From Nitrospinales bacterium (lineage in GTDB: Bacteria > Nitrospinota > Nitrospinia > Nitrospinales > VA-1): 64,000 bases of DNA. The notes below the pieces were generated by a model that was given only the letters and a program-made list of their open reading frames with translations, had not been told where the DNA came from and did not search any database. Each line of letters starts with the position of its first letter. Positions within the stretch are counted from its first letter, which is position 1. The stretch is from positions 1,344,001-1,408,000 of the forward strand of contig OZ253496.1 in the NCBI GenBank assembly GCA_965262115.1, read 5' to 3'. The translations under genes were made by a program, and so were the position numbers. Shown here in pieces: positions 2,873-60,429 of this stretch.

Positions 2873-2951
2873 TACCCCTTCTACCCGTTCCGGGCATAAA
2901 GTCAGTGGAGAAATATCACAGGCTCATGAAATTTATGGAAGGGATATCACA
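2873..2951 (+). repeat. Two nested copies of the ~40-bp TACCC...ATCACA element
   Basis: Outer TACCCCTTC (2873-2881) + inner unit (2882-2920) + outer remainder (2921-2951). Same architecture at 36704-36782. Confidence 0.8.
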
Positions 2952-2970
2952 GCCCGGCGCCAAGTGGGGA

Positions 2971-3477
2971 TTACTTCTTTTCTTTGGGCTTGTCTTTTTT
3001 AGCGGTTGCTTTTTTGGCCGTTCCTTTTTTGGGTTCGGCTTTCTTTTTATCCGTCACTTTTGGTTGGGTGTCTTTCGCTGCTTTTTTCGGCGCGGCTTTG
3101 GCAGGAGGCTTTACCTCGCCTTCGCGGTCTACCAGCTCGATAAAGGCCATGGGCGCATCATCTCCCTTGCGGTGACCGATACGAATGATCCGGGTATATC
3201 CACCGGGCCGATTAGCATAACGCTCCGCCAGGGGACCAAACACCTTATGCACTGCACCTTTAGCAGGAACCAGCTTGAAAGCCTGGCGACGAGCGTGAAG
3301 CGTACCTCTTTTGCCCAGCGTGATTGTTTTTTCCACCTTGCCCCGCAGTTCTTTAGCTTTCGCCAAAGTGGTGCTGATGCGCTCTCTTTGAATAAGAGCC
3401 CCAACAAGGTTTCTGAACAATGCTTTTCGATGAGCAGAGGTTCGTCCGAATTTTCTACCTGCTTTTAAATGCCGCAT
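2971..3477 (-). CDS. rplQ: 50S ribosomal protein L17 with Lys/Ala-rich C-terminal tail
   Basis: [19 protein letters not shown]...RPGGYTRI; follows rpoA. Confidence 0.98.
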
Positions 3478-3519
3478 GGTTGTTTATCACTCCTGTTATG
3501 ACTTCAACGAGCAGGACTG

Positions 3520-4548
3520 CTACAGCTCGATTTCGGTATCTATTTCTTTTTTCTTCTGGGCTTGAAGGATCTGTTTGAGATCCTCTTCATCGACTTTCAT
3601 TCCCAAATGAAGTCCCATGTCCTCTAAGATTTCCTTGATCTCATTCAGCGATTTACGGCCGAAGTTTCTAGTTTTCAGCATTTCACTATCAGTTTTTTGT
3701 ACCAGTTCGGCAATAGTCTGGATGTTGGCATTTTTAAGACAATTGTAGGAGCGCACCGATAGCTCGAGCTCTTCCACACATTTGGCCATATTGGTCAGCA
3801 CCTTCTGTTTTTTCTCATCCACCTGGGGTTGTACCGGTTCCGGCTCTTCATCAAAATTGATAAAAATCTGCATGTGCTCTTTAACAATCTTGGCGGCATG
3901 TGCCACCGCATCTTCAGGTGTGATGCCTCCATTGGTCCACAATTCCATGACCATAGAATCATAATCTGTCGATTGCCCGACCCGGGTATTCTCGATATGA
4001 TAGGTGATCTTTTCGATCGGGGAAAAACTGGAATCCACAGGGATCATCTGCACCGATTCATTTTCAATGTTGTGCCGGTCGGCAGGAACATAGCCCCGAC
4101 CTTTTCTCACAATAATCTCCATTTCCACCTCACCGTTTTGGTCGATGGTGAGAATGGGAAGATCGGGATTCAGCACCTCCACATCCGGGTCAGCCGTGAT
4201 ATCTTTGGCACAAATGGTGCCCGATTTCGAGGCTTTGATATAAACCCGTTTAGAGTCCGCTTCACCGGTCAGCTTGAGGTTGACCTGTTTAAGGTTGAGG
4301 ACAATTTCCGTAACATCTTCAACCACACCTGGAATGGAGGAAAACTCGTGAAAGATTCCCTCAAACTTTACGGCCACAATGGCGGCCCCTTCAATGGATG
4401 ACAACAGCATCCTTCTTAGAGAGTTGCCAATGGTCACTCCATATCCGCGTTCGAAAGGACCCGCGCTGAGTTTACCGTAGTATTCCGACTTATTTTTCTT
4501 ATCAAATTCTAATCGCTTGGGTTTAACGATTCCCTGGGCTGTGAACAT
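3520..4548 (-). CDS. rpoA: RNA polymerase alpha subunit
   Basis: [16 protein letters not shown] and [12 protein letters not shown]...[10 protein letters not shown]. Confidence 0.99.
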
Positions 4549-4622
4549 GAATCCTCCGACCTCTTGATTGGGGTCTTAAACAGTTTTTAATTAGTTTCTT
4601 GTGATGTGGATCAAGTCCAGTT

Positions 4623-5249
4623 TTAGCGTGAGTAGAGTTCGACGATCAACTGCTCCTCAATCGGCATAGTTACATGCTCTCTTGCAGGCAAGGCCTGGAC
4701 AACACCCTGCTTGCTATCCGCATCAAACGATAGCCAATCCGGCAGGGGTTTTTCCTTAATATTCTCAATCGCTTTTTTAACCGGCGCTTTTTTCACCTTA
4801 TTGGGATTCAGAGCTATCGTATCTCCCTGCCCAAGAGCATAGGAGGGGATATTCATCTTTTTCCCATTAACGGTAAAGTGGCCGTGGCTAACCAACTGGC
4901 GGGCTGTACTCCTGGATGAGGCCAGTCCCATCCTATAAATAACATTATCCATCCGCAACTCTAAATTTTGCAGAAGGTTTTCACCGGTGACACCTTTTTT
5001 CTTATCTGCCGCAAAAAAGTAATTACGAAATTGCTTTTCCAGTACGCCGTAAATCCGCTTTACTTTTTGCTTTTCACGAAGCTGCACCCCATATTCCGAG
5101 AACTTCTTCCTGCCTTGGCCATGCTGGCCTGGCGGGTACGGTCTTTTTTCTATAGCGCATTTTGCCGTCTCGCAACGGGAACCTTTTAAATATAATTTTA
5201 TGCCTTCTCGCCGACAAAGTCGGCAAACAGAACCTGTATACCTGGCCAA
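4623..5249 (-). CDS. rpsD: 30S ribosomal protein S4 (Cys-containing, Zn-binding type)
   Basis: [16 protein letters not shown]...LREKQK...[11 protein letters not shown] start. Confidence 0.99.
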
Positions 5250-5278
5250 ATTCAGCTTCTCCTTTCGGTTTTGCGCAA

Positions 5279-5668
5279 TTAAACCCTACGGCGTTTTCTT
5301 GGGCGGCAACCATTGTGCGGAATCGGGGTCTTGTCACGAATAACAAGAACTTCCATTCCCGCAGCCTGCAAAGATCGTATTGCGGACTCTCGTCCCGATC
5401 CAGGGCCTTTAACATGGACCTCCAGTTTTTTCATTCCCATATCCCGTGCTTTGACAGCGGCTTTGTCGGCCGCCACCTGTGCTGCAAACGGGGTACTTTT
5501 TCTTGAGCCTTTAAAGCCCTGAGCACCAGCGCTGGACCAGGACACCACATTCCCGGACATGTCGGAAATGGTGACAATAGTATTATTGAACGTGGCCTGA
5601 ATATGGGCCACCCCTACTTCCGGCACCGTCTTTTGCCTTTTTTTACCGCTTTTTGCTTTTTTATCCAT
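5279..5668 (-). CDS. rpsK: 30S ribosomal protein S11
   Basis: [13 protein letters not shown]...[13 protein letters not shown]...PHNGCRP. Confidence 0.99.
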
Positions 5669-5680
5669 TAATCTTTATCC

Positions 5681-6052
5681 TTATTTTTTTGCTCGTGCGC
5701 CCACAGTTTTCTTGGGGCCTTTTCGGGTTCTGCCGTTGGTGTGCGTTCTTTGCCCTCTGACCGGCAACCATTTACGATGGCGAAGCCCTCTATAGGCACC
5801 TATGTCCATCAAACGTTTAATGTTCATGCTGACATTGCGTCTCAAGTCACCTTCTACTTCGTAATCTTTATCGATAACACTACGGATTCGGGTCACCTCT
5901 TCTTCGGTCAGGTCCTTCATTCTGATTTCTTCCCCAACCTGGGCTTTTTTCAGGATATCCCGGGAAATATTTGGCCCCACTCCATATATGTAGGTCAGGG
6001 CGATTCTTGCCTGTTTATCCTTGGGAATATCTACACCCGCTATTCTTGCCAC
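5681..6052 (-). CDS. rpsM: 30S ribosomal protein S13
   Basis: [10 protein letters not shown]...LTYIYGVG...LPVRGQRT. Confidence 0.99.
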
Positions 6053-6070
6053 TGCTTCTCCTTTAGGAAA

Positions 6071-6184
6071 TTAACCCTGTCGTTGCTTATGCTTCGGGTT
6101 CTCACAAATAACCCGCACAACTCCACGACGGCGGATGACTTTGCATTTTATACAAATTGGCTTGACCGATGCCCTGACTTTCAT
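6071..6184 (-). CDS. rpmJ: 50S ribosomal protein L36
   Basis: Below the ORF-track cutoff. Manual translation: [37 protein letters not shown]. Confidence 0.98.
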
Positions 6185-6199
6185 GGTTCCATCCTCTTT

Positions 6200-6418
6200 T
6201 TATTTATACCGATAGGTGATCCGTCCCCGGGTCAAATCATAAGGAGAAAGTTGCACCTTCACCTTATCTCCGGACAGGATACGGATAAAATGCATCCGCA
6301 TTTTCCCGGATATATGGGCCAGCACCTTATGGCCGTTATCCAACTCCACCCGAAACATCGCGTTCGGCAATGGTTCAAGTATGGTGCCTTCTACTTCTAT
6401 AGATTCTTCTTTAGACAT
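6200..6418 (-). CDS. infA: Translation initiation factor IF-1
   Basis: [25 protein letters not shown]...[11 protein letters not shown]. Confidence 0.99.
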
Positions 6419-6421
6419 CCG

Positions 6422-7063
6422 TTACTTTACCATTTCTAAAACGCGGGAAAAAATTTCTTCTACAGACCCTCTAGCTGTTACTGTTTTCAAATTCCCCTGT
6501 TTCTTATAAAATTCTTTTAAGGGCGCGGTGGACTTCTGATAAACCTCCAGCCGCTTCAAAATCGTATCCTTATTATCGTCCTGCCTCTGGGCCAAGGTAG
6601 CACCGCAACCGTCACAAACCCCCGAAACTTTTGGAGGTCGAGATTCTTCATGAAACATGGCACCACAATCCGGGCAGGTGCTTCGTCCGGTCAACCGGCT
6701 GATCACCTCTTTAGAATCAACTTCCAGATCCACCACATTGTCAATCGTCAAGCCCATTTCGGTCAATGTTTCCGAAAGCTTTTCGGCCTGAACGATGGTC
6801 CGTGGAAACCCATCCAGGATAAATCCTGTTTCACAATCGGCCTGCTTGATACGTTCCTTTATCAAGCCGATCACTACATCATCTGGAACCAGTTGACCCA
6901 CATCCATAAACGATTTGGCCTGAATGCCCAGCTTCGTATTATCCTTAACCGCCTGCCTCAAAATATCACCGGTGGATATCTGCGGGACCTGAAATTTTTC
7001 TTTCAGAATTTTAGCCTGGGTGCCTTTGCCGGCTCCCGGCGGGCCTAAAATAATCAATCTCAT
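6422..7063 (-). CDS. adk: Adenylate kinase (Zn-lid type)
   Basis: GPPGAGKGTQA, ISTGDILR, LDGFPRT and a CPDC...CDGC lid. Confidence 0.98.
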   Translation of the reverse strand: MRLIILGPPGAGKGTQAKILKEKFQVPQISTGDILRQAVKDNTKLGIQAKSFMDVGQLVPDDVVIGLIKERIKQADCETGFILDGFPRTIVQAEKLSETLTEMGLTIDNVVDLEVDSKEVISRLTGRSTCPDCGAMFHEESRPPKVSGVCDGCGATLAQRQDDNKDTILKRLEVYQKSTAPLKEFYKKQGNLKTVTARGSVEEIFSRVLEMVK

Positions 7064-7066
7064 CAA

Positions 7067-8383
7067 TCAGCCTCTTCGGCTTTTCAATCGCCCCTTTTTC
7101 ATAAAACCGTCGTAATTTCTCATGACCAGGTGAGACTCAATTTGCTGCATAGTATCCAAAGAAACACCCACAACGATCAACAGGCTTGTTCCACCAAAGT
7201 AAAAGGGGATGTTAAAGTATTTTATCAAATAGTCCGGCAAAATACAGACTAAAGAAAGATACATGGCCCCATAAAACGTGATCCTTGAAAGGATCGTGTC
7301 GATGTATTCGGAAGTCTTGGCTCCCGGCCTGATTCCCGGCACAAACCCCCCATGCTTTTTCATATTGTCCGCCACATCAACCGGGTTGAAAATGACGGCT
7401 GTATAGAAATAGCAAAAGAAAAATATCGCTCCAACAAAAATCAGACTGTACACAATGGTTCCAGGGGTCAACAGCGCCGAAACCGTCTGCATCCACGGAT
7501 GACTGATAAACTGAGCAATCGTCGCTGGGAACATGATGATGGACGAAGCAAAAATCGGCGGGATAACCCCCGACGTATTGACCTTCAAAGGCAAATGCGT
7601 TGCCTGCCCACCCATCATTTTCCGACCCACCACCCGTTTCGCGTATTGGATCGGAATCCTGCGTTGCCCTCCTTCCGTAAAAACGATGACCCCAACCACC
7701 ACAACCATCAAAACCAGAAGGAACAACATAACGAGCACCGACATTTCGCCCGTACCCATCAAATCCATCGACTGAAAAATTGCCGCCGGAGTTCCGGCAA
7801 CAATTCCGGAAAAAATAATCAGGGAAATTCCATTCCCGATCCCCCGCTCGGTAATCTGCTCACCCAACCACATCAAAAAACAAGTTCCAGCGGTCAGGGT
7901 CAAAACCGTCATCATTCGGAACGACCAACCCGGTTCATGGACAATCATTCCCCCGCTCGGGCTTTTCATTGCTTCCAGTCCCACAGCGATGCCGGAACCC
8001 TGAATTGTACTCAGCACCACCGTTCCATACCGGGTGTACTGGGTAATTTTTTTCTGCCCCTGCTCCCCTTCCTTTTTCAATCTTGCCAGGGTGGGAGAAA
8101 CAATCGTCATCAACTGCAGGATGATCGATGAGCTGATATAGGGCATGATGCCCAACGCAAATATCGTCAACCGGCTCAATGCGCCGCCGGAGAACATATC
8201 GAAAAACCCCAGGATAGTGCCCTGGGCCCGAGCAAACAATTCTGCCAACGCCACAGAGTTGATTCCCGGAGTCGGAATATGAGCACCGATCCGATAAACA
8301 ACTATAAGTGCAAGCGTGAAAAGAATCCGTTTTTTTAGCTCAGGCACACGAAAAATATTGCCAAAACTCTCAGCGCCGCTCAT
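7067..8383 (-). CDS. secY: Preprotein translocase subunit SecY
   Basis: [38 protein letters not shown]. Confidence 0.99.
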
Positions 8384-8818
8384 TTAGAGGCTAACAGCCT
8401 TTCCCCCGGATTTTTCAATTTTGGCTTGCGCCGAGCCGCTGAATTTATGTGCGTGAACATTTAACGATTCCTTCAACTCGCCGCATCCTAGAATTTTCAC
8501 CAATCCGGTTTTTTTGATCAACCCCTTTTCCTTCATCACTTCCGGGGTCACCGGGTCAGCCCCGGCACAGCGAGCCAAATCGCTCACATTAACGATTTCA
8601 AACTGTTTCTTAAAGATATTGGTAAACCCACGCTTGGGCAACCTCCGTTGAAGCGGCATCTGCCCACCCTCAAACCACGGGTGTGGACTTCCGCCTGAAC
8701 GAGACTTCTGCCCCTTCTGTCCCCTGCCAGAAGTTTTTCCGGTCCCGGAGCCAATGCCACGGCCTATCCGCTTTCTATCTTTTCGGTCCGGTCCCTTCAA
8801 ATTTGATAAATGCAACAT
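8384..8818 (-). CDS. rplO: 50S ribosomal protein L15
   Basis: [24 protein letters not shown]...[17 protein letters not shown]. Confidence 0.99.
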
Positions 8819-8847
8819 TCTTAATCCTCAGTAAAATTCGGGGCCCA

Positions 8848-9333
8848 TTATTTGCCGCGCATGCGGGCACATTCTTTTGCGTCGCGCAAAACGGTCAATC
8901 CTTGAATGGTCGCCTTGACCACGTTATGCGGGTTATTGGTGCGCAAACATTTGGTCAAAATATCGCGAACACCAACCGCCTCCAGAACCGCGCGGACAGC
9001 GCCACCCGCTATTAGACCGGTACCTCGTGACGCCGGCTTCATTAAGACCCGGCCCGACCCATAAGCCCCTATCACTTCATGGGGGATGGAAGAACCCTCG
9101 AGACTCACTGTTACCATGGCCCTCTTGGCTTTTTCCATGCCTTTGCGTATTGCTTCAGGAACTTCATTGGCTTTTCCCAAACCCCAGCCAATCTTGCCAT
9201 CCCGATTGCCAACCACCACCAGCGCACTGAAGCTGAAACGGCGACCGCCTTTCACAACCTTGGCTACACGGTTGATTTTGACAACCTTATCAACAAAATC
9301 TGTGGGTTTTTCCTGGTCCCGTTGTCGCAACAC
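8848..9333 (-). CDS. rpsE: 30S ribosomal protein S5
   Basis: [23 protein letters not shown]...GTGLIAGG. Confidence 0.99.
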
Positions 9334-33209: not shown

Positions 33210-33282
33210 CAGGCCAGGAGGGATTCGAACCCCCAACCCTCGGATTTGGAATCCGATGCTCTACCGTTAGAGCTACTGACCT
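33210..33282 (-). tRNA. tRNA-Trp(CCA), 3' CCA not encoded
   Basis: AGGTCAGTAGCTCTAACGGTAGAGCATCGGATTCCAAATCCGA...GGTTCGAATCC...; canonical position before secE. Confidence 0.96.
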
Positions 33283-33380
33283 AATTCGGAATCCGCGCCA
33301 GTTTATAGGAAGGGGAGGAATATTTCCGCCTGCCCGATCGCCCGGACATTCGCCCTCACTCCCAACCGTCCGATTTTTCT

Positions 33381-33530
33381 TTATTTGGTTTCCTTATGGG
33401 GGGTGTGTTTTCTGCAAAACCTACAGTATTTCTTGAATTCCAACCTTTGCGTGGTGGTCTTCTTGTTTTTAGTCCCCGAATAATTCTTCCGATTACAATC
33501 AGAACATGCCAAATGAACGATAACTCTCAT
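33381..33530 (-). CDS. rpmG: 50S ribosomal protein L33 (Zn-binding type)
   Basis: Manual translation: [49 protein letters not shown]. Confidence 0.97.
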
Positions 33531-33628
33531 GATTATTTACTCAACCTTTGTATCCGACAGCCTCACCCCCTACCGGCCGCAAGACATTTATAATCTCTAT
33601 CAAACCCAGGAACCACCCAATGGAAACC

Positions 33629-33703
33629 TGGAGCCCACGATCGGGATTGAACCGATGACCTCTTCCTTACCAAGGAAGTGCTCCACCACTGAGCTACGTG
33701 GGC
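33629..33703 (-). tRNA. tRNA-Thr(GGT)
   Basis: GCCCACGTAGCTCAGTGG...CTTGGTAAG...GGTTCAATCC...GTGGGCTCCA. Confidence 0.96.
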
Positions 33704-33739
33704 GTTAAATACTGACTCCCAATACCCGGTCAAAGGTGG

Positions 33740-33816
33740 TGGAGCGGGAAACCGGACTCGAACCGGCGACCCTCAGCTTGGAAGGCTGACGCTCTAGCCA
33801 ACTGAGCTATTCCCGC
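33740..33816 (-). tRNA. tRNA-Gly(TCC)
   Basis: GCGGGAATAGCTCAGTTGG...CCTTCCAAG...GGTTCGAGTCC...CCCGCTCCA. Confidence 0.96.
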
Positions 33817-33841
33817 AAGTCCATCCAACCTAAATTCAGGA

Positions 33842-33923
33842 TGGGGAGGGGAGGATTCGAACCTCCGAAGGCTGAGCCGACAGATTTACAGTCTGTTCCC
33901 TTTGGCCACTCGGGAACCTCCCC
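33842..33923 (-). tRNA. tRNA-Tyr(GTA)
   Basis: GGGGAGGTTCCCGAGTGGCCAAAGGG...ACTGTAAAT..., long variable arm, GGTTCGAATCC. Confidence 0.96.
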
Positions 33924-34018
33924 GTCATTATGGGTGAACCATCACAACCCCACAGTCGGTCATCGCCCAGCCTCCATAGCAGGGCACCGGAATCCTTTTT
34001 AAACCAGTCAATTAAAAC

Positions 34019-34094
34019 TGGAGCTGGCAAAGGGACTCGAACCCCCGACCTGCTGATTACAAATCAGCTGCTCTACCAACTGAGCTACGCCAGC
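34019..34094 (-). tRNA. tRNA-Thr(TGT)
   Basis: GCTGGCGTAGCTCAGTTGGTAGAGC...ATTTGTAAT...GGTTCGAGTCC...CCAGCTCCA. Confidence 0.96.
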
Positions 34095-34540: not shown

Positions 34541-34669
34541 GAGACCTTTGCGTAAGTCTATAAAGCAAAAAAGCGAGATGCTTCGACAAGCTCAGCATGA
34601 CAATAAAAGGCTATTTTTTCATTCTGAGGAGCTATTGCAACGAAGAATATTGGGTTATGCAAAGGTCTC
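34541..34669. mobile_element. 129-bp MITE with 9-bp target site duplication
   Basis: Ends GAGACCTTTGCGTAA / TTATGCAAAGGTCTC. ATCCTGGGA flanks both sides (34532-34540 and 34670-34678). Confidence 0.9.
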
Positions 34670-36639: not shown

Positions 36640-36927
36640 GAGACCTTTACATAACCCCGGATTACCCCTTCGGGGCATGAAGGTTAAGGAAGAGGACATC
36701 ACATACCCCTTCTACCCGTTCCGGGCATGAATTTAGCGGAGGGGATATCACAGGCTCACGAAGGTTAAGGAAAAATATCACGTCTTCGTCACGTTATTCC
36801 TCAGAATGACAAACCGGCTTTGCGCTGTCATTCTGAACGCAGTGAAGACGTGATATTCCACTTAAGCTCTCGTGCCCCGAAGGGGTAATCTCGCTTTTTT
36901 GTTTTTTTCGACTTACGCAAAGGTCTC
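36640..36927. mobile_element. MITE with 9-bp TSD carrying four ~40-bp inserted elements
   Basis: Ends GAGACCTTTACATAA / TTACGCAAAGGTCTC. ATTGCCTAT flanks both sides (36631-36639 and 36928-36936). Inserts at 36663-36782 and 36849-36887. Confidence 0.9.
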
Positions 36928-36988
36928 ATTGCCTATTTCCTCTGGCGGCTCGCCGGTTGGCCACATGTTATATACCCCACCTTAGCTT

Positions 36989-38074
36989 TCATGCCCCGGA
37001 GGGGTACGCCGAGTGGCCGAGCAGTTGTTTGTTGAAGGCTTCACGTCCTTCCAGAATTTCAAGTTCGATCACCACTTTAAAAAAAGGCAAGATGAATTTC
37101 ATCTCTTTGAGTTTCACCGCATCTTTTTCTGGAAGCAGAAGGAACCGGGCGCCCTCTTTTACTGCGCGGGACTCCAGTTCTTTAATATCCTGCAAGGTAT
37201 AAGGATGATGATCGGGAAAGGACTTGAAAAATTTTAGTTGAATCTGCGAGTCCAGCAAAATCTGCCTGAATCCTTTCGGTTTTGCAATCCCACAAAATGC
37301 GGCGACCGGTTCATTCTTTAATATTTCCATCTCCAACACTTCCTCATCATCCATGCGAATTATGGAATCCAGACGAAGGTGCGTTTTGATCTGGGGAACG
37401 GAACCTAAAAGGCGTGAATCAAAATTGATGGAACCGCCGGAATAATGGGTGAAGCAAACCATATCTGCCCTTCTTGTTTCTCTTGCCGGTTCACGCAACT
37501 CCCCCGCCGGAAAAAGGTGACCGTTACCGAGCGGCCTGCAATGATCAAAAAGCAGGATGTCCAGATCGCGGTTTAAAGCCAGGTGCTGAAACCCATCATC
37601 CAGAACCAGAGTATCAACACCAAAATGATCGAGCGCGTACTGCCCTGTCTGATAACGGTCTGGCCCGGTTAAAACCGGAATGTTTTTGAGTTTTTCCGCC
37701 ATCATGACCGCTTCATCTCCGACCCACTCAGGAGAAAGCAGCGTTTGTTTTCCATCGCAGACCACATTGACCGGGTCACCGGATTTTCCGCCATAACCCC
37801 GGGTGAGAATAGCGGGCTTGAGTCCGTTTCCCCTGAGGGTTTCGGCAATCATCATGACAAAGGGCGTTTTTCCTGTTCCGCCCAGCGTCAGGTTGCCAAC
37901 GCTGATCACCCGGCAGTCGAGTTTGCGGCTGGGAAATACCCCCCATCGGTAGGCCCAGAGACGAAAATGGTGGCCCAGTAAATAAACAAAGGAAATGAGT
38001 TTCAGGATTGCAAAAACCGGAAACCAATACCATTTGCGATCGGGCGATATGACTTTATAGAAAATTTCAGACAT
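36989..38074 (-). CDS. lpxK: Tetraacyldisaccharide 4'-kinase
   Basis: VISVGNLTLGGTGKTP, LTRGYG, GDE, LDDGFQH...RD, PAG.LRE, FPDHH. Confidence 0.96.
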   Translation of the reverse strand: MSEIFYKVISPDRKWYWFPVFAILKLISFVYLLGHHFRLWAYRWGVFPSRKLDCRVISVGNLTLGGTGKTPFVMMIAETLRGNGLKPAILTRGYGGKSGDPVNVVCDGKQTLLSPEWVGDEAVMMAEKLKNIPVLTGPDRYQTGQYALDHFGVDTLVLDDGFQHLALNRDLDILLFDHCRPLGNGHLFPAGELREPARETRRADMVCFTHYSGGSINFDSRLLGSVPQIKTHLRLDSIIRMDDEEVLEMEILKNEPVAAFCGIAKPKGFRQILLDSQIQLKFFKSFPDHHPYTLQDIKELESRAVKEGARFLLLPEKDAVKLKEMKFILPFFKVVIELEILEGREAFNKQLLGHSAYPSGA

Positions 38075-42435: not shown

Positions 42436-42970
42436 CCACTCGGCGCTCCTTAGCAGGGGTCGTAAATCATCCCGGCCCCTCGTGATATTGTTCCAAAGCC
42501 CTCGTGCCCGGCACGGGTACTTTGGAAAAGAGGGACCTTTGCATAACCTGAGATTCTCATTGATCCTCCCCTCTCATGAGGGGAGGCAAGGCGTAGCCGC
42601 GGAGGGGTGTGGATTATTTTTAAGGAATTCATAATCCAACCCTCCCCCAGCCCCTCCCTATGAAGGGAGGGGGGATTTCTGCTTCCACCTTTTTCAGGGA
42701 GGGCCAAGGTGATTTACCACCAGGAGGTTTCAGGTTGTCCCCCTTTTTCTCAAAGAGAGAGCTTTGCATAACCCGAGATTCTTCACTACGTTCAGAATGA
42801 CAAAACAGCTCTTTATTGTCATGCTGAACGAGATCGCATTGTCATTCTGAACGTAGTGAAGAATCTCGCTTTTCAGGTTTTTCGACTTATGCAAAGGTCT
42901 CCTTCCACGAAGTACCCCCTTGGGGAATGAAGGCTGATGTTAAATACCACAGGGGTTGGGGGGATTCGAT
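42436..42970. repeat. Composite repeat cluster (MITE ends, REP-like inverted repeats, ~40-bp elements, C/G-run hairpins)
   Basis: MITE-like ends at 42532 and 42757-42901; perfect inverted repeat 42775-42801 / 42841-42867; ~40-bp units at 42481-42519 and 42913-42951. Confidence 0.8.
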
Positions 42971-47155: not shown

Positions 47156-47271
47156 TACCCCTTCTACCCGTTCCCCTAAATTCATGCCCGGAACGGGTAG
47201 AAGGGGTATGTGATGTCCTCTTCCTTAACCTTCATGCCCCGAAGGGGTAATCCGGGGTTATGCAAATGTCA
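47156..47271. repeat. Partial MITE end with ~40-bp elements (largely reverse complement of 36640-36736)
   Basis: 47176-47265 is the near-identical reverse complement of about 36647-36736; 47156-47174 pairs with 47190-47208. Confidence 0.85.
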
Positions 47272-47642: not shown

Positions 47643-47766
47643 GGAGGCCTTTGCGTAACCTGAGATTCTCATTGATCCTCCCCTCTCATGAGGGGAGGCA
47701 ATGATCTTCCCCTGAATTGGTGGACACATCGAAAAGTGTGGATAATACACTTTTGGAGGTGTTTTT

Positions 47767-48101
47767 ATGGGAACCAAACGCAGGAGTTTCAGTAAAGAAT
47801 TCAAGTTAGAAGCGGTTCGATTGGTTATTGAAGTAGGCGATAGCATTGCCCGGGTGTCCCGGGATCTGGGAATCCGTTCTGCCCTTCTGGGTCGCTGGAA
47901 ACAGGAGTATGAGGAGGATCAGGGGAATGCGTTTCCCGGCAAAGGACAGCTTAAGCCGGGAGATGAGTTGCAGCAGTTGCGGCGAGAAAACGCTCGCCTT
48001 CGTATGGAGCGGGACATATTAAAAAAGGCGGCAGTTATCTTTGTGATGTCCTCTTCATTTGTCTTCATGCCCCGAAGGGGTACTCGAAGGGTTCCCAATG
48101 A
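47767..48101 (+). pseudogene. IS3 OrfA (HTH), 3' end disrupted by a 41-bp insertion
   Basis: RRSFSKEFKLEAVRL...LRRENARLRMERDILKKAA. Removing 48042-48082 restores VIFSKGSQ* overlapping the orfB ATG. Confidence 0.85.
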
Positions 48102-48961
48102 GATATCGGTTTATACGGGATCATCGAGAAGCATTTCCGGTAAGCCCGATGTGCCGGGTTCTGGAAGTGGGACGAAGTGGGTTCTATGCCTGGCTGAGCC
48201 GCCCCGAGAGCCTGAGGAGCCGTGAGAAGCAGCGATGGGTTGATGAGATCAAAACCGTTTATAAGAAGAGTCGCCAGACTTATGGCAGTCCCAGAATTCA
48301 TGAGGACTTGAAAGACAAGGGATATGCCATTGGCAGGCATCGTATTGCCTGTCTTATGCGCGAGCATGGAATCGTTGCCAAGCACAAAAGAAAGTTCAGG
48401 GTGACAACCGATTCCAAACATAATCACCCGGTGGCAAAAAACAAACTGCAACGGCGGTTTAATGTTGCTGAGCCCGGTCAATGCTGGGTTTCGGATATCA
48501 CCTATATCCCGACTCAAGAGGGCTGGTTATACCTTGCGGTGACGCTGGATTTATTCCACCGTAAAGTTATTGGTTGGGCCATGGATCGTTGGATAACCCG
48601 TTGGTTGGTAATGAGAGCTTTAAATATGGCAATGAAGAACGGCGGCATGAAACCGGGATTGATTCACCATTCTGACCGGGGGGTTCAATATGCCTGCAAC
48701 GATTTTCAAGCCTTGCTCAATGTTCATGGGATAGAGTGCAGTATGAGCCGGAAGGGCGATTGCTGGGATAACGCCGTGGCGGAGAGTTTTTTCCATACTC
48801 TCAAAGTGGAACTCATTCATAACCGGAACTACAAAACCCGTCAGCAAGCAAAGAAGGATATTTTTGAATATATCGAAGTGTTTTATAATCGGCAACGCCG
48901 TCACTAATATCTCGGCTATCTCAGCCCTGCCGAATTCGAGAAACAGGCCTATGCCTCTTAA
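48098..48961 (+). pseudogene. IS3 OrfB DDE transposase with a late nonsense codon
   Basis: [33 protein letters not shown]. Reads NRQRRH*YLGYLSPAEFE, with TAA at 48905-48907 where Ser is usual. Confidence 0.9.
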
Positions 48962-49186
48962 CTAACTGTCCACTAAAACAGGGGAAGATCACATATAACA
49001 CAGGGGGGGGAGATGACAGTCGAAAAGGCCAACAGGCAGTAAATCACCCCAACCCGTCGGACAAGACGTATTCCTATTGTTCAAGTTTAAGAAAGAGGGG
49101 GATTAAAAACTTTCCCTGTCTGTGGGATTGCTTTTCACTCTCCCCGGCGAGGGTGCCGATTTTTTATCTGGCCCTGCGCCGAGCAG

Positions 49187-49261
<75 letters not shown>

Positions 49262-50728: not shown

Positions 50729-50948
50729 CCGGTGAACCGCCGGTAGCAACGGGGCGGTGATACCCCTGCGGAGCATGAAGACTAAAGTGGGGACATCACA
50801 CGCACTTGCGACCACCAAAAGCATCGTTGTGATATTCTGCGAAATTCATAATCCAACCCTCCTCCAGCTCCTCCCTATGAAGGGAGGAGAGAATAAGGCA
50901 AGGACTTGTTAAGCTGAGAAGAACTGTTGCTCGCCAAAAAAACTATGG

Positions 50949-51524
50949 CTAATTGCCCCCACGGCTAGTGGCGGCAATAAATTTTTCTCTGGCTTGTTCG
51001 TCCTGTAATTGTTCTTCATCAATAACAGGTATGTCAGGAAAGTGTTTCATGAAGGCCCGGGCAAACAGTCCGGAGGTTTTTTCAACCGTTTCGCTGTGGA
51101 CAGGGGCATCTTTTATTGCGCAGGAAGGGGAACGGCTTTTAAAAATAAATCCACATACGTTCAGTCGCGTTAATTCCTCCAGCTTTTTAGAGCTGAAGTT
51201 GGTCATCGCATCCGTCTAGTCTTTTCCCGATTCGACACCTACCATGCGTACCACTACCCGTGGAGGGAGCTTGCTGATGCCGGGCGGCAGCTTTTGAGTT
51301 GAGTTCGAACTTTCTCCCGCTAGGCATTCATCGCCCGTCACGATTTGAACTTTTTCTCTCGGGACACCCATTCCCATTTCCACTTCAGGGCAGACCGGCA
51401 CCGCTTCGAACCGATCGTCTACGTCGAAAAGGTCGATCACGCCTTGGTTATATTTATGTTCCCCGTTATAACGAACCGATTGACCCAGCAGACAACTGCT
51501 GACCCCGATTTTGAGTTTTTCCAT
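50949..51524 (-). pseudogene. DUF523 (2-thiouracil desulfurase-like) gene with an in-frame TAG and an inserted repeat
   Basis: GVSSCLLG..VRYNG, VCPEVEMGMGVPRE, KSRSPSC, GLFA. The two ORFs are in one frame, separated by TAG at 51216-51218. Confidence 0.85.
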
Positions 51525-54098: not shown

Positions 54099-54863
54099 AT
54101 GAAAAAACTTCTGATAATAGTTTATGTTTTATTAATGACCGGCTGCGACAGCTCCCCTGTCGGCAAAACCTATCTGGTCGCGACCGACGCCACCCTCGTG
54201 CCCATGTCTTTCATGAGTGTCGGCAACGATATAACCGGATTTGAACCTGATCTCATGCGGGCTGTGGCGAAAGAAGCCGAAATCAATATCCGCCTTGTCA
54301 ATGTCGAGTGGGCCGGTTTGTTTGGCGGACTCATCACCCGGAAATTCGATATGGTGATCAGTTCTGTCACCGTTCTGGAAGAGCGTAAAGAACGCATGGC
54401 CTTCAGTGACCCCTATCTTAAAAGCGGTCTGGCTTTAGTGATCCGCAAGGATCAGAAAGGTGTCAATTCATTTGCCGACGCTAAAAAAAATAATTTTTTA
54501 ATCGGCGCCCAAATCGGAACCACGGCTTATTTCTTTCTGGAAAAAGATCCCACCGTTCGTAAAAAGGGTTACCAAATGTATGACCACGTCGTGACCGACC
54601 TCATCAACGGAAAAATTGACGCAGTACTGGGGGAAAGCACCGGAACACTTTTCTATCGGAACCAGCACAAACCTTTGTTTGAAAGAATTAAAATGGTCGG
54701 CGAAATCATGACCAACGAATATTACGCCATCGTTTTTCATAAAGACGACACGGAGCTTTTGGCGAAGGTTAATGTTGCTTTGCGGACAGTCTTAAAAAAT
54801 GGAACAGCCACCCGGCTCCACAAAAAATGGGATCTGGGCCAGGCCGCCCAAGTACCGGAATAA
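54099..54863 (+). CDS. Polar amino acid ABC transporter substrate-binding lipoprotein
   Basis: Lipobox MTGC; VATDAT..P, GF..DL, ERKERMAFSDPY, GAQIGTT. Confidence 0.9.
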   Translation: MKKLLIIVYVLLMTGCDSSPVGKTYLVATDATLVPMSFMSVGNDITGFEPDLMRAVAKEAEINIRLVNVEWAGLFGGLITRKFDMVISSVTVLEERKERMAFSDPYLKSGLALVIRKDQKGVNSFADAKKNNFLIGAQIGTTAYFFLEKDPTVRKKGYQMYDHVVTDLINGKIDAVLGESTGTLFYRNQHKPLFERIKMVGEIMTNEYYAIVFHKDDTELLAKVNVALRTVLKNGTATRLHKKWDLGQAAQVPE

Positions 54864-54868
54864 ATATC

Positions 54869-56170
54869 TCACTCTTCCTTCTCATTGGGCATTAATATAT
54901 TATTTATTTTGTTGCTAATTTTCATCCATTTTTCGTCCATAAAACCAGGCTTGCTAATGGTGTGAAGTAATATTGCTGACCGAAACAAACTGGAATGCAA
55001 AGAAAGATTACCTGTTTCGGGATCTTCATTTACTGCTCCGGATTTCTTTAATTCGGGAAGGCAAGAACTAGAATAGATGTTACCTGGGAACTCTTTATAA
55101 AGAATTGATTTAGGAATGGGGGCCGAAACCCACGCCAGGATATTCATTATTTCTTCTCGGAGTTTCTGCTTCCCCTTGAAGTTATATAGATTCAAAAAAT
55201 CTTTGTCTTGAAGCTCTCTGGCAGCTTCACTGATGGCCTCCCCCCAATCATCGGCATCTATGAGATTGTTCGTGTCAACCTCAATCAAATTATGCCCCAG
55301 AACCTGTAAAGAGTAAGGGTATCCGCCTGCAAGTTTAACCTTTGCATCCAGCTCTTCCTGGTTATACTCGATCTGAACATCATCAAACCCTTTGACCAAA
55401 ACTTCTTTGGCTTCTCCATACGGCATTCCTGTTAAGGGAATTGAGTCAAAACTTCTTCTGGCCGAAGGATCGCCCTCGAAAAAACTTTGAATGGCTTCAT
55501 TGTATCCAATAATAATGAATGAAATATTCCCGAGGCCATTCACATCCAGAGTTGTGGTTATACTTCGTATTAATTGTGCGATTCCCTGAATATACTTCGC
55601 ATTATGAATTTCATCCAAAACTATTAATAATCCATCATATTTACTTTGTTCCTCTACTTCTTTGAGCCCTAATAAAATATTGGTCAAAACTGAAACAGCC
55701 TGATCCTTAAAATACTGCTCAATATTACCATCATCTAATGGCAACCCCATTTGCCCCGAATCCACCGCAACACTTACTCCAAATGCCCCAAATGAAAACT
55801 TTCCTTTATTAAATAAGTCTCCTAATCTATCTGCCAGCCGATCAATTGAGGGCTTGGGCAGTTTGTCGGTCAACTGGTTCAAAACAGCCTGCAAAACTGT
55901 TCTAAAATGTTGCCCCTTTTCTACCGTGTAATAACTTGTAAGAAAATCTAAATTTTCCAATCCTTGATCTTTGGATTCCGCAATATGAAGAATTAGCCTT
56001 GCCAAAGCTGTTTTCCCAATTCCCCTTTCCCCGTGGAAAATAAAATTGGATGACATTCCTCTTTTTACCTGGGCAAGCTTTCTGATAATCTGAAGCGTTT
56101 GGTCTGAGCGACCTGCAAATAAAGTGGGGGCTACGGTTGAGTTGGGATTAAAAGGGTTATAAACAGCCAA
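54869..56170 (-). CDS. AT-rich P-loop ATPase (AAA_16 / STAND-like)
   Basis: NPF..., FAGR, Walker A GERGIGKT, Walker B LIVLDE, GGYPY motif, possible C-terminal winged helix. Confidence 0.85.
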   Translation of the reverse strand: MAVYNPFNPNSTVAPTLFAGRSDQTLQIIRKLAQVKRGMSSNFIFHGERGIGKTALARLILHIAESKDQGLENLDFLTSYYTVEKGQHFRTVLQAVLNQLTDKLPKPSIDRLADRLGDLFNKGKFSFGAFGVSVAVDSGQMGLPLDDGNIEQYFKDQAVSVLTNILLGLKEVEEQSKYDGLLIVLDEIHNAKYIQGIAQLIRSITTTLDVNGLGNISFIIIGYNEAIQSFFEGDPSARRSFDSIPLTGMPYGEAKEVLVKGFDDVQIEYNQEELDAKVKLAGGYPYSLQVLGHNLIEVDTNNLIDADDWGEAISEAARELQDKDFLNLYNFKGKQKLREEIMNILAWVSAPIPKSILYKEFPGNIYSSSCLPELKKSGAVNEDPETGNLSLHSSLFRSAILLHTISKPGFMDEKWMKISNKINNILMPNEKEE

Positions 56171-56512
56171 TTTTAAAGCTCCTCAGGAAAATAATTAAAA
56201 TTTGCTAGTTTTAGCCATTTTTATTAAGTAACGCACTAGAAAATAGCCGAAAAAACAACAAAAACCAATATTTTCAACGAATTAAAAATTATTTTTGCTG
56301 GAAATGTCTCTAATGGTGCTATAAAATTCTTTATTTTGTTAGTTTTTTATTAAAAACTTTAGTTTGGTTAAGTAAATCTAGAGTTTCTTAACTAAGAATC
56401 CACCCTTCTCTCTATATTTTCGTTTTTTATTCGTTTTAATGCACCGATATATTATGAGAAAATACACGAATCGGGAGGTTTCATTTTATCTAATTTCCCC
56501 TTATAAATATGA

Positions 56513-57319
56513 GTGCTAAAGTTAGGCTATTCATTAAATAACCTTCGGTACCTGTCGAAAACCAAAAATCTCTTGCAACAAAAAAACACACAAAACTGGG
56601 CTTGGAACCTTGCGGTCATGATGAGCTTTATTTTTCTGCTTTATCTGCCCACAAAAGAAACCTTCATAGGCAAGGAGCAAACCGGCGGTTACTTGGAACT
56701 GCTTTTGCTTTTACCCTCTGGTGTGTTTTACACACTTCTCGTCACCCTGCTGGGCAGTGCCAGCGCCATCGTGGTAGGATTGTTGGTAGGGCTGGGAAAG
56801 CTCTCGGACAATCCTTTCATACGAATCCCGGTTTCTTTTTATACAGAGGTGTTACGTGGTATTCCTCTGCTGGTGCTTTTATTTTATATTTATTATGCCT
56901 TGGGAGAATTCATTCATATGCCGGCACTGGTTGCGGCAGTGGCGGGATTCGGCTTCAGCTATGGAGCTTATATGGCAGATGTGTTTCGCGCCGGTATTGA
57001 AGCGGTTCCCAAAGAGCAGGGCGAGGCCGCACGCAGTCTCGGCATGAATGAAAAACAGGCCATGTTTCAGGTCGTTCTTCCGCAGGCCCTGCGTACTATT
57101 ATTCCCGCTATTGGCAACCAGACCCTGGGTATGTTGAAAGACACCAGCCTGGTTTCGGTGCTGGCCATTTCCGATATCCTTCGGGTCGGCAACGAATATG
57201 CCACCAAACACTTCAATTATTTTGAGACCTATACCTATGTGGCTTTGACCTACTTGCTTCTCACCCTTTTACTTTCCCGCCTGGTACACAAACTTGAATC
57301 CCGCTACCGGCCTCACTAG
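56513..57319 (+). CDS. Polar amino acid ABC transporter permease (start uncertain)
   Basis: YTEVLRGIPLLV, AYMADVFRAGI, QGEAARSLGM, VVLPQA, LKDTSL. Confidence 0.92.
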   Translation: MLKLGYSLNNLRYLSKTKNLLQQKNTQNWAWNLAVMMSFIFLLYLPTKETFIGKEQTGGYLELLLLLPSGVFYTLLVTLLGSASAIVVGLLVGLGKLSDNPFIRIPVSFYTEVLRGIPLLVLLFYIYYALGEFIHMPALVAAVAGFGFSYGAYMADVFRAGIEAVPKEQGEAARSLGMNEKQAMFQVVLPQALRTIIPAIGNQTLGMLKDTSLVSVLAISDILRVGNEYATKHFNYFETYTYVALTYLLLTLLLSRLVHKLESRYRPH

Positions 57320-57516
57320 CCCCAGCGTGACGCTGGACTCAAAATCTAAGGACACAGTTTATTTAGCCGAGATAACTCTTTGCTCACCAAACAGAGTTAT
57401 TACCAGCTGGCCCCACGCCTAGTGGTATTTTTCAGGTATTCCGTGACATCAAGTTGGAGAGATTATATATTAAGAATAACGAGGATTTTTGTGTTCAACC
57501 GGGGGAGGAGGGAAGA

Positions 57517-57795
57517 ATGAATACCGCATTGGAAGGTGAGAAAAAAGTGGCCGCAGAGGACTATTTTCTGTTGGCAATCCGAAACTGGGATGACAAGCTG
57601 AAGGATTTTTTACCTGTTGGCGATCCATCAACAACCACTCAAACCTTCAACGAGTACCCTAACGCAGAAAAAGCTTTCTTTTCAACGAATCATGAAAACT
57701 ACCCGCAGGCGGGGGGAAAAGATGTCAAACTTGAATTGCTACATATGCGTTTTGGCATCCCGCATATAGTACGAAACCGCATCCTGTTTCCCTAA
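57517..57795 (+). CDS. Hypothetical protein
   Basis: 92-aa ORF with a GGAGG RBS; no family recognised. Confidence 0.6.
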   Translation: MNTALEGEKKVAAEDYFLLAIRNWDDKLKDFLPVGDPSTTTQTFNEYPNAEKAFFSTNHENYPQAGGKDVKLELLHMRFGIPHIVRNRILFP

Positions 57796-57954
57796 GTCGG
57801 CTGCTTGTTCTCCAGTTTCTGAATCAGCGACTGACCAGACCCCGTAATTTATACCAGATTTAGGATTCCGGGGGGTACCTTGGCAAAGATCGTTCCCATT
57901 GAATCCCTAGGTGTTATACTATATATTGTAGTGGTAAATTCTTACCTTTAATTT

Positions 57955-58312
57955 GGGGGCGCTCTGGTTTCGACGGGAGAGCTGATACAAAGGTTGCATG
58001 CACGGGATGCCGTTGGCCCGTAAAAAAACGGCTTTTACATAATCGCCAACGATTATGATGTAGCTGTAGCCGCTTAATTTAATCGGTTACCGTCCGCCGC
58101 GTCCATGTTCGCGGGAAGCGGGTCGGACGTCATTCAGCGAACTGGTTTGGGCCGTATGTTCCGGGCGGGCTGAACGAGATTTTTAGGAACTGGCTTTGGC
58201 TTAATCCTGCCTTGGGAGTTGGTCGAAGCGAGATTTAAAACAAAGGATAAGCATGTAGACGCCTTTGCTTAAAACCTTTCGGACGGGGGTTCGATTCCCC
58301 CCGCCTCCACCA
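57955..58312 (+). ncRNA. ssrA: tmRNA; tag peptide ANDYDVAVAA
   Basis: 5' GGGGGCG...GGTTTCGACGGG and 3' GACGGGGGTTCGATTCCCCCCGCCTCCACCA; tag frame 58045-58077. Confidence 0.97.
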
Positions 58313-58730
58313 CTGCTCACCGCAGGGGCAAAGTTTAATGACCTATTAAGCCGAGAGGATTGTTGCTGGCAGTAAAAAGCTATTGCTAATCGGCCCTACG
58401 CCTAGTGGCTGCTCGCCGCAGGGGCAATAGGTCAATGCACACCAAGCCTGCAGATGGTATTGCCCACTCAACTCTGGTCTGCAGTTATTTCCTCCCATGT
58501 AAAAGGTGCTCTTTGCAGGGGCGTGGTATTCTTACGTAGCTGTGATGCCTCTTCCTTAAACTTCATGCCCCGTAGGGGGAGAACGGCTACAACTGGCTGT
58601 CCCTTCCTCTTATTTTAGAGATTGTTTGAGCGCGGCAAAAGGTATACAAGTTACCCGCGGAGGTACTCCACTGAATCCAGCGTCACGCTGGCCTCCGCCG
58701 CAAATGGCGGGGCTCTATGACCATAGCTTT

Positions 58731-58907
58731 CTATAAATTATTTTTCCTTTCCTGAATTTCAGCTCTTCTGGTCTTTGCAAGTTTTCCAAGCTCACCCAAA
58801 GCTTTACGAGCACGGGCGGCGGCGTATTTTATATTTTTAGTTTCAAAACTCTCATTTTCCGCAAGGTAGTTTTCGTAAGCAGAAGTAATTTGTTCATGCG
58901 TTGCCAT
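58731..58907 (-). CDS. Small basic protein, histone H1-like Hc1-type (tentative)
   Basis: 58 aa, below the ORF-track cutoff, with an AGGAG RBS: MATHEQITSAYENYLAENESFETKNIKYAAARARKALGELGKLAKTRRAEIQERKNNL. Confidence 0.75.
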   Translation of the reverse strand: MATHEQITSAYENYLAENESFETKNIKYAAARARKALGELGKLAKTRRAEIQERKNNL

Positions 58908-59341
58908 GTTTAACTCCTAATATTTAAGGTTGTTGTATTCAAAACCAAGTAAAGAATTAGCACACTACCTTTGATCTATACAACTTAAAAAAATTCTTTG
59001 TGATTGGCTCACCCAGAATTTTATACCCGGCTCTAAGTTCATAATTTAATATTTTATCGCCTGGGCGCTGCCTCCACCTGCTTTTAATTTACAAGCAATC
59101 ACCAAATTTTCAATGGTTCATGACAGGTTTTGAGTTAAAACTGTCTAAAATTCATACTCGAATATTTCGCCATTACCCCACCCATTTTTCTTGGTATTTA
59201 TACTAACTTGCACAGAAATATTGCTTTCAAGGAAGTCAGTGTGTCATTTTTACTGACGTAAAATCAAACATTTTAGCCATATTATATAGTTCTATGTTAT
59301 ATTCCCATTCAATATCACATTAACAGTCAGGAATCCTAGGG

Positions 59342-59761
59342 ATGTCAGAAATAGGAAGGCGTTTTTCTCTCGACAAGGTGTCGGTTGACCCGAAACTTAA
59401 AAACCGAATTTTTTCAGCAGATGGGGATGACCATATCGGCGATTGGGATGGGGAATGCATTGATGACCTGATAAAAGAAATCGACCGTATTGAAGAGCGG
59501 ATGGACCCCAATTATTCCAGCCTGCCGCACTCTACTAATATTCCCGATGATTTAAAAAAAGAGGTTGCGAAGGATTGTCCTATTTGGACCTGTGACAAAA
59601 AAGGCCGTTGCCTGGTGGGTGATGCAGGGTCAGAAATTAAAACCGTTGATGAAATCAGGAGCCACTATATCAATAAATATGGAAGTGTTGATAAGTTTAA
59701 AGACAAATTAAGAATCGAACGGGAAAAGTTTATTCAAGAAGTCAAAAGCAGGTCCGAATAA
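59342..59761 (+). CDS. Hypothetical protein
   Basis: 139-aa ORF containing CPIWTCDKKGRCLVG; no family recognised. Confidence 0.7.
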   Translation: MSEIGRRFSLDKVSVDPKLKNRIFSADGDDHIGDWDGECIDDLIKEIDRIEERMDPNYSSLPHSTNIPDDLKKEVAKDCPIWTCDKKGRCLVGDAGSEIKTVDEIRSHYINKYGSVDKFKDKLRIEREKFIQEVKSRSE

Positions 59762-59776
59762 GTAATATTTTAGCTT

Positions 59777-59835
59777 TATTCCCCAGAATGACAAAATAGC
59801 CTTGTATTGTCATTCTGAACGCAGTGAAGAATCCC
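59777..59835. repeat. Degenerate REP-like inverted pair, as found inside the MITEs
   Basis: CAGAATGACAA...TTGTCATTCTGAACGCAGTGAAGAATC matches 36802-36848 and 42841-42865. Confidence 0.75.
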
Positions 59836-59972
59836 CAAGCCTATGCAAGGCGAGATTGCCCCTTCGGGGGTCAGGCCTATTTTCATTTGGATTTATAATC
59901 TTTTTCTTCATGATATAATCCAACACTTGGGAAATTACCAAATTTTATTAACCCTTTTTTGGTGAGGGAGTG

Positions 59973-60290
59973 ATGGAGATTATTTCTATCGATGAATTGC
60001 ATGACAAGGTCCAACAGATGGGTAAAAACGATTTAATTCTTGATGTCCGGTACCCCGAGGAGTATTCAACAGGGCATATTGAAGGATCTCAAAATACTCC
60101 CCATGAAGAAGTCAGCACTATCGCGGAAGACCTGAAAAGTTACGACAACATCTATGTCCATTGCAAAATGGGCGGACGAGCCAAAATGGCTTCCGAGTCA
60201 TTGATCAATGCCGGCCTGGACAATATTGTTTGTGTGGGAAATGGAGGTATGGAACGCTGGATGGAGATGAATTGGCCGGTGCAAAAGTAA
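59973..60290 (+). CDS. Rhodanese-like domain protein
   Basis: ILDVR.PEEY..GHIEGS, active-site HCKMGGRA, GGM..W. Confidence 0.92.
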   Translation: MEIISIDELHDKVQQMGKNDLILDVRYPEEYSTGHIEGSQNTPHEEVSTIAEDLKSYDNIYVHCKMGGRAKMASESLINAGLDNIVCVGNGGMERWMEMNWPVQK

Positions 60291-60429
60291 GTACCGGCGA
60301 ACCGCCGGTTGCAGATGCACAAACTCATTAAGCCAAGATAAGCTTTTGCTAGCGCGACATGATATTTTTCATTAAAGTTTGTGCCTCGCAGGGGTATAAA
60401 ACTATCGCTAGTTGGCCCCACGCTTAGTG

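Follow-up and report, generated by a model that had tools for sequence, protein, structure and literature searches.

A mobile 40-base element of Nitrospinota with precise insertion, a covarying end pair and a one-sided flank change

Dispersed through a 64,000-nt stretch (the window) of a Nitrospinales genome (G000; 2.68 Mb, a single contig) is a non-coding element of 39-41 nt, here called the unit, whose written strand runs from T1 to ATCAC plus one last base. An earlier note, made from the letters of the window, had described about 15 copies and proposed a very small non-autonomous mobile element reminiscent of the small dispersed repeats (SDRs) of Nostoc-type cyanobacteria. The unit is real, mobile and SDR-like, as precise empty sites support, and it fails the SDR size as well as the tests for REP, SRM, IS91 and MITEs (small transposable elements with inverted repeats). 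New here are the pairing of base 16 with the last base, seen as covariation, a change of the host flank on one side, read-through units, and an IS110 element that targets the hairpin of the unit. How elements of fewer than 50 bases move has been a standing question since the Nostoc SDRs were described. The reading favoured here, with a probability of about 0.45, is that the unit moves as folded single-stranded DNA, carried in trans by an HUH-type strand-transfer enzyme whose protein would be absent or unrecognised.

Copies, distribution and insertion sites

Each stretch listed in the earlier note proved to be a unit, a nested pair or the partial copy described there, exactly placed. A 19-mer from the left end matched the window 13 times at up to three mismatches, against 0.10 expected and at most 1 in a shuffle, and a two-ended pattern matched 267 times across G000 and 0 times in one base shuffle. 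With inner units removed recursively and the remainder rescanned, the total in G000 came to 311 (277 + 34), besides 25 further hairpins split by IS110. The described length of 39-41 bp holds for 387 of 400 distinct units. The exact pattern is present in 31 of 120 Nitrospinota genomes, including 29 of the 69 others of the same family; the highest relative is G073, with up to 250 pattern matches, and a reversed control pattern gave none. By genus, units are carried in g1, g5 and g6 and are lacking in g2-g4, g7-g9 and g11. Among the matches listed from a species collection, 76 of 80 loci are titled Nitrospina or Nitrospinota, the remainder being three from two other metagenome-assembled genomes and one that is chance-like; a Paracoccus match (L087) in coding-like sequence was treated as chance and excluded from the counts. 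That the unit belongs to no recognised family was borne out: it matched neither the tested REP and NTS/SRM definitions nor Rfam, a scan of the window returning only tRNAs and tmRNA, and a literature search with subscription journals largely outside its reach gave no description of it. Six units lie on one 50-kb viral, phage-like contig (L011-L015, L017), a possible vehicle between hosts; a relaxed left-end scan of viral contigs (123 loci fetched) gave mostly chance matches among those listed.

Evidence for movement comes from exact empty sites, which were found in G000 with eight matching bases on either side for 26 of 192 distinct unit contexts. Control searches that kept the first or the last base of the unit gave 0 and 0, and those that dropped one flank base gave 6 and 2, upholding the claim that terminal inverted repeats and target duplication are absent. 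The last base belongs to the unit because no empty site keeps it (0 of 192), which rules out its donation by the target. Orthologous loci were compared over 1.2 Mb each of G073 (of ~2.9 Mb) and G053 (of ~2.6 Mb), skipping tandem sites and allowing up to 9 mismatches; together the six comparisons yielded 19 precise pairs of a filled and an empty allele, running in both directions, along with 45 calls of filled on both sides and 254 loci too rearranged to score, and the window units 2882-2920 and 60358-60396 are among the 19. Single units make up 118 of 193 unit clusters and have precise empty sites. Most insertions are into small repeats of other kinds or into copies of the unit; the target consensus is weak, about W-W-K | N-S-Y-K-C, and the pairing profile of reconstructed targets is flat. 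The copies in the window and the elements that bear on them are as follows.

2873..2951, plus strand: outer unit whose hairpin loop is interrupted by an inner unit; right half GGCTCA, not GGGGCA; the G073 ortholog is empty and reads GGGGCA
2882..2920, plus strand: inner 39-nt unit; precise empty ortholog in G073
34577..34604, plus strand: unfilled example of the host site used most often (a CGTC-type repeat); the junction follows 34588, and 12+14 such sites elsewhere in G000 are filled
36663..36703, plus strand: 41-nt unit, head-to-tail with the next unit
36704..36782, plus strand: outer unit split in its loop, right half GGCTCA; the whole cluster lies within a CGTC-type repeat at GGAT|TCTTC
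36713..36752, plus strand: inner 40-nt unit
36849..36887, minus strand: 39-nt unit with a C16-G pair, in a CGTC-type repeat at GAGAT|TCTTC
36966..37006, minus strand: 41-nt unit in a second small host repeat (D4) at GGCG|TG
42481..42519, minus strand: 39-nt unit lying at AAAG|AGGGG of a C/G-run hairpin repeat
42913..42951, plus strand: degenerate 39-nt unit at GAAG|GGGG
47156..47208, minus strand: nested pair, truncated, that ends by folding back into its own first 18 bases in inverted form
47209..47249, minus strand: 41-nt unit
47702..48991, plus strand: IS3-family element carrying a unit, 1290 nt, with HTH_Tnp_1 and rve domains; no empty copy found in G000
48042..48082, minus strand: 41-nt unit inside the IS3, just after the A6G slip site; exactly absent from the G070 homologue
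50761..50800, plus strand: 40-nt unit, filled also in G053 and G073
58522..58580, minus strand: 40-nt unit (58541-58580) with a 19-nt second end module behind it that has no host left half (read-through type)
60358..60396, minus strand: degenerate 39-nt unit; precise empty ortholog in G073

Fold-back products like that at 47156-47208 occur also at positions 898458 and 1737978 of G000 and suggest template switching on the hairpin. CGTC-type repeats stand in the window at 34577-34630, 36794-36848, 42774-42868 and 59776-59833, and C/G-run hairpin repeats at 42536-42675, 47648-47701 and 50843-50892 (also L371-L385). The small D4 hairpin repeat, at 50944-50970, 57398-57424, 58381-58407 and 60403-60429, has about 100 free copies in G000 and often harbours the unit, in either orientation; a partner gene for it was not seen.

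Fold, unlike ends and one-sided flank change

The written strand begins T1 A C C C S T N C S G G G C A15 N16 G A A and continues through a purine-rich variable core to R Y A T C A C and the last base. Two pairs of positions covary far above all others, namely 6 with 10, and 16 with the last base. At positions 6/10 the counts are C-G 122, G-C 45 and T-A 9 (of 195), position 8 being free, and the loop keeps T7 and C9 around a free middle base under a compensated closing pair. The 5' GC hairpin had been described as often bearing a cUUCGg loop; this RNA tetraloop is ruled out by the 6-10 covariation, which leaves three bases, reading G-N-A on the reverse strand, where positions 2/14 become a T-G pair. 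Three-base G-N-A loops form stable hairpins of the DNA type, and the loop argues for the reverse strand as a possible active one. Base 16 and the last base are Watson-Crick partners in 603 of 695 distinct units (87% vs 46% expected), as T-A 354, C-G 216, A-T 30 and G-C 3, and seven identical cores each occur with two different 16-last pairs. Such compensatory pairs in otherwise identical cores imply selection on the unit itself. Together with T1-A15 and G17-C(-2), the 16-last pair would set both ends of the unit side by side, to judge from the base pairing.

Passage through an RNA intermediate, in which the written strand would be transcribed, folded with its ends together and inserted by a template-jumping reverse transcriptase, appears improbable. 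It would account for tandem arrays, which template jumping would give, and for the excess of T-G at the 16-last pair (discussed below), and a non-canonical internal loop could arise between the conserved GAA and AYATCAC. Against this, a reverse transcriptase is absent from G072, G053 and G045 and broken by internal stops in G000 (L350, L351; C1:50216-51029), the three-base loop is of the DNA type, and the units have no gene-strand bias (83/147 sense/antisense) and no Rfam match. The core resembles that of hammerhead or hairpin ribozymes; neither candidate was retained, as invariant bases are not kept and partner domains are absent, and the lost invariants of the hairpin ribozyme also count against an RNA route.

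The earlier note also held that excision of the unit restores the host. Exact empty sites exist and that part stands, but the right flank is often changed at +3 to +5, as at 2882-2920. In the 19 ortholog pairs, which are few and not fully independent, mismatches number 17/57 at +3..+5 vs 56/703 at the other 37 positions (Fisher p 5e-6); the changed bases lie on the ATCAC-N (right) side only, and about half of the pairs show no change. The same is seen within G000, where the own-hairpin site reads CT in 18/26 filled copies (11 different cores) vs 1/287 free ones, the D4 repeat site reads CT in 7/10 filled vs 0/97 free, and the own-core site reads AC in 7/7 filled vs 0/13 free. The change neither adds nor removes bases, and the host past about +10 is locus-specific. 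Near-identical cores in unrelated surroundings share their flanks over -3..+5, with an excess identity of 0.24-0.44 that falls to <=0.07 at +6 to +10. Counting each family once leaves an excess, though a less sharply bounded one, and there are related units whose sites, entered with exact ends, bear no likeness to each other (3.5 vs 2.6 matches of 8). We infer that a few donor bases are carried over at one end; a CGTC-type site with native CTTC|GGCTC (L072, L090) is a plausible source of the GGCT flank, and directed mutation or selection on donors are the alternatives.

The two ends also differ in how strictly they are observed. Composites, in which a unit is joined to a second end module that has no hairpin, are without the host left half in 6 of 27 distinct cases, and a second type is so in 8 of 16, including 58522-58580; five of those eight follow another unit in tandem or a contig end. 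Tandem-adjacent copies account for 47 of the 311 in G000, with one array of five units. By this analysis composites and tandems would fit a fixed hairpin end and a leaky ATCAC-N end, and later deletion or conversion could also produce composites that lack the host left half. In IS91-family HUH elements, too, one end is fixed and the other leaky, and the target is not duplicated (PMC13181058).

Routes of movement and the search for an enzyme

The zero-base overlap at the junctions fits single-strand cutting and joining and does not fit DDE, serine or IS110 recombination. In the favoured HUH-type reading, the hairpin, with its G-N-A loop on the reverse strand, would be the protein-binding end, and the pairs 1-15 and 16-last would stack so that both ends meet, much as in guide-base selection in IS200/IS605 and REP systems, where guide bases beside a hairpin select the cleavage sites (IS200/IS605 and a group 3 REP system; PMC8266576). 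Joining would be precise at the hairpin end, with ATCAC-N serving as a leaky terminator, and up to ~5 donor flank bases might sometimes come along, replacing an equal length of target. Through such carry-over, lineages would tend to re-use sites resembling the last one over roughly -3..+5.

A number of results weigh against this reading. Y1 transposase is absent from the near-closed high-copy genomes G000, G072 and G073, a purpose-built hidden Markov model giving a best E of 0.06; no Y2 was detected in 22 of 23 genomes, in a search whose control set had no positive; no relaxase was found in 5 of 5 genomes; and no gene recurs beside or inside units. The insertion sites have no fixed target tetranucleotide, and units in G000 show no replication-strand bias (141/311, p 0.11), a bias that IS200/IS605 elements do show. 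T16-G (54) outnumbers C16-A (17), an excess favouring the written strand as the active one; eleven of the T16-G cases come from one site type, where the insert faces an inverted host, and the excess was set aside as evidence of the active strand on account of this confounding. Folding energies with DNA parameters leave the strands unseparated (201/400). Most comparable loci are too rearranged to score, e.g. 43/73 for G000 vs G073, and the ortholog pairs are as few as stated above. The flank linkage over -3..+5 is weaker under equal weighting of families, and to our knowledge a length-preserving flank replacement is not a described outcome of HUH transposition.

The earlier note had suggested looking for copies that bracket an HUH/Y1, IS110, reverse-transcriptase or nuclease gene; none was established among the genes tested, and no tested candidate combined presence in every high-copy genome with flanking units. 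Y1 genes occur in 37 of 120 genomes of the phylum vs the unit in 31 of 120, and these are different genomes; weak Y1 matches in four high-copy genomes (best E 0.015) proved to be a conserved single-copy host gene. Y2, Rep_trans, relaxase, reverse transcriptase, PDDEXK_3 and DUF559 are each missing from at least two high-copy genomes. Tyrosine recombinases of ~300 aa, two per genome in 5 of 5 genomes, which we take to be XerC/XerD, were set aside because the unit junctions have no overlap homology. No autonomous copy was seen among 15 genes flanked by two units, among 36 short genes flanked by any repeat, in open frames near units of the fetched loci, or in low-copy genomes. In other families of the phylum, the IS200-like Y1 genes L154 and L158 are flanked by short C4-GNA-G4 hairpins that resemble that of the unit, a point in favour of the HUH-type reading.

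Homing by nick and repair is a possible but doubtful course of events. Here a hairpin-specific single-strand nuclease of the Ssn/GIY-YIG or DUF559 type, the partners of the host repeats, would cut target or donor, and host repair would copy the folded unit via short flank homology, making the flank change a co-conversion of the bases from the cut to the insertion site. Co-conversion gives a one-sided, length-preserving change, and related units do have common flanks over about -3..+5. SsnA cuts single-stranded hairpins a few bases upstream (PMC11893778), and small GIY-YIG genes flanked by CGTC-type repeats are found in G000, G053, G072 and G073, which are the high-copy genomes of genus g1 and the richest of their genus in that repeat. 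Set against these points, in genus g5 the query returned no Ssn-like gene from any unit-bearing genome (6 of 6), and it had matches in many genomes free of units; DUF559 is missing from G072 and G045; and 0 of 238 units fit the SRM pattern, a pattern that caught only 5 sites in G000. Exact ends in wholly unrelated sites, such as the IS3 site, need end-specific joining, and a hydrolytic nuclease does not join strands. Among the nuclease genes themselves, CGTC-type repeats in relatives flank 95-100-aa GIY-YIG genes like Ssn (L299, L305, L309, L310, L314); G000 has one near-intact GIY-YIG gene (L306) and one broken by repeat plus unit (L317). It also has nine DUF559 matches, five of them close copies, of which four are among the short repeat-flanked genes.

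Part of the copy number is passive, units riding in amplifying CGTC-type repeats and in IS3. That passive spread should explain the whole, a few founder insertions having been multiplied by host-repeat amplification, IS3 transposition and ectopic gene conversion with no current machinery, is unlikely. Such a history would suit the 14+12 copies in G000 that share one host site and few cores, the presence of the unit in all readable IS3 copies, its restriction in G020 to one host repeat type, and the failure of the search for an enzyme. Against it stand the number of distinct contexts, 192 in G000 and 368 when all loci are taken, close relatives that differ precisely as filled and empty in both directions, the selection on the unit that the compensatory 16-last pairs imply, and a GG-to-CT change that recurs at one offset in two hosts unrelated to each other. 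In G020, a genome of another family, the units (L512-L514) are four and degenerate, three clearly within a CGTC-type repeat and with near-identical flanks, as in hitch-hiking across families.

A broader proposal, speculative and on balance unlikely, is that there exists a class of ~40-base elements that carry their own end-joining splint, choose new sites with the aid of flank bases carried from the previous one and rely on host enzymes only, with no dedicated transposase, SDR5 in HIP1 following the same chemistry. If it were true, exact excision would let interrupted genes such as that of IS3 be restored for a time, like a DNA-level intron. Were an enzyme found, precise, duplication-free single-strand insertion of a 40-base substrate would make a useful tool; the family offers hundreds of natural variants, with the 16-last pair, the one-sided 5-base footprint and the read-through units as handles.

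Associated insertion sequences, known systems and the rest of the window

An IS110-family element of ~1197 nt, with a PF01548 DEDD domain (E 6e-10) on its first 90 residues, sits in the hairpin of many units. Of its 26 left ends in G000 (e.g. C1:736446), 25 follow the ACCCCT of the unit and one lies in another IS110 copy, and the CT core is repeated at both junctions. The left-end loop reads TTTACCCCTT and CCCGAAG, matching the left and the right target, in the way described for the left-end loop guides of IS621 (PMC11208160). In the main type 22 of 22 distinct right ends lie in TTC-loop units and two variant copies, with CCCTG and CCCGCAG guides, lie in TGC-loop units, while the free loops are about equally common (TTC 28, TGC 35, TAC 41, TCC 30); several copies lie in the IS3-borne unit and have common ancestry. 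The predicted bridge-RNA guide thus appears to track the loop variant. A copy in G073 likewise ends in a unit (right end in L566). The element shares with IS621 the DEDD domain, the CT core and the left-end loop with two guides (top and bottom strand); it differs in targeting a mobile 40-mer and in having two guide variants that follow two loop variants in one genome. It would make a clean natural example of a bridge-RNA element parasitising a mobile element.

That the resident IS110 recombinase itself moves the unit is very improbable, abundant and always associated with the unit as the element is. Its copies lie within the hairpin and the CT core is duplicated there, which makes the unit its target, and the unit's own junctions have no core repeat. 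With this query IS110 was detected in 9 of the 120 Nitrospinota genomes and not in the high-copy genomes G053 or G072; on that ground the element is taken to exploit the unit and not to move it.

Every IS3 copy in G000 whose junction is readable carries the unit, seven being of 1290 nt and seven longer with IS110 as well, and the orfB identity of these copies is >=99%. The homologue in G070 lacks exactly the 41 bases of the unit. With the unit in place orfB lies in the +1 frame relative to orfA, and a -1 shift at A6G, the usual one, runs into a stop. That IS3 spread despite the broken fusion might be due to exact excision for a time, to a different shift within the unit, to a helper copy since lost or to gene conversion. 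The listed part of a comparison with contigs of four public sequencing runs gave no usable evidence on excision, and no RNA holder was among the public runs listed.

SDRs are 21-27 nt long, nest in their own copies and in other repeats, and have a shared fold with compensatory changes; we know of no enzyme for them, nor of flank change or read-through units among them. The likeness to them drawn in the earlier note holds for precise, duplication-free insertion and for a structure backed by compensatory changes (pairs 6-10 and 16-last), and fails for size, the unit being 39-41 nt long. The unit also differs in having no fixed octamer target and in its host, which is Nitrospinota, not Nostocaceae. 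SDR5 enters the HIP1 octamer after its third base (PMC4390886), and this 3|5 split is that of the -3..+5 linkage of the unit. Among HIP1-rich cyanobacteria, SDRs are reported only in Nostocaceae (PMC4390886, PMC5861425).

REP/REPIN-RAYT and IS200/IS605 systems use a small hairpin of one strand whose foot bases pair with the cleavage site (PMC8266576, PMC3116915, PMC3733652). Like REP and REPIN sequences, the unit has hundreds of intergenic copies and is targeted by IS110; unlike them, it has no GTAG tag, its reverse strand reading TTC-N before the stem, it is a single element with two defined ends and a variable guide base and not an inverted doublet, and it has no flanked Y1 gene. The NTS/SRM system of Ssn (PMC11893778) resembles it in the TC-tagged short hairpin of the reverse strand, and the CGTC-type repeats that flank small GIY-YIG genes are a main host of the unit. 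Units nest in these repeats and do not themselves flank a nuclease gene; the 238 units departed from the strict SRM pattern whether taken as linear or as a circle, and units are present in genus g5, where the Ssn-like gene was not found (0/6). With IS91 (PMC13181058) the unit has in common the absence of target duplication and, to judge from the composites, perhaps also unlike ends with read-through past one of them, which deletion or conversion after insertion could mimic; it has no Y2 transposase or target tetranucleotide and is ~40 times shorter. The terminal inverted repeats and target site duplication of DDE-derived MITEs are both absent.

Elsewhere in the window, a cluster of ribosomal protein and RNA polymerase genes is present and positions 2952-36662 are free of units; tmRNA and six tRNA genes lie at 57955-58312, 33210-34094 and 49190-49261.

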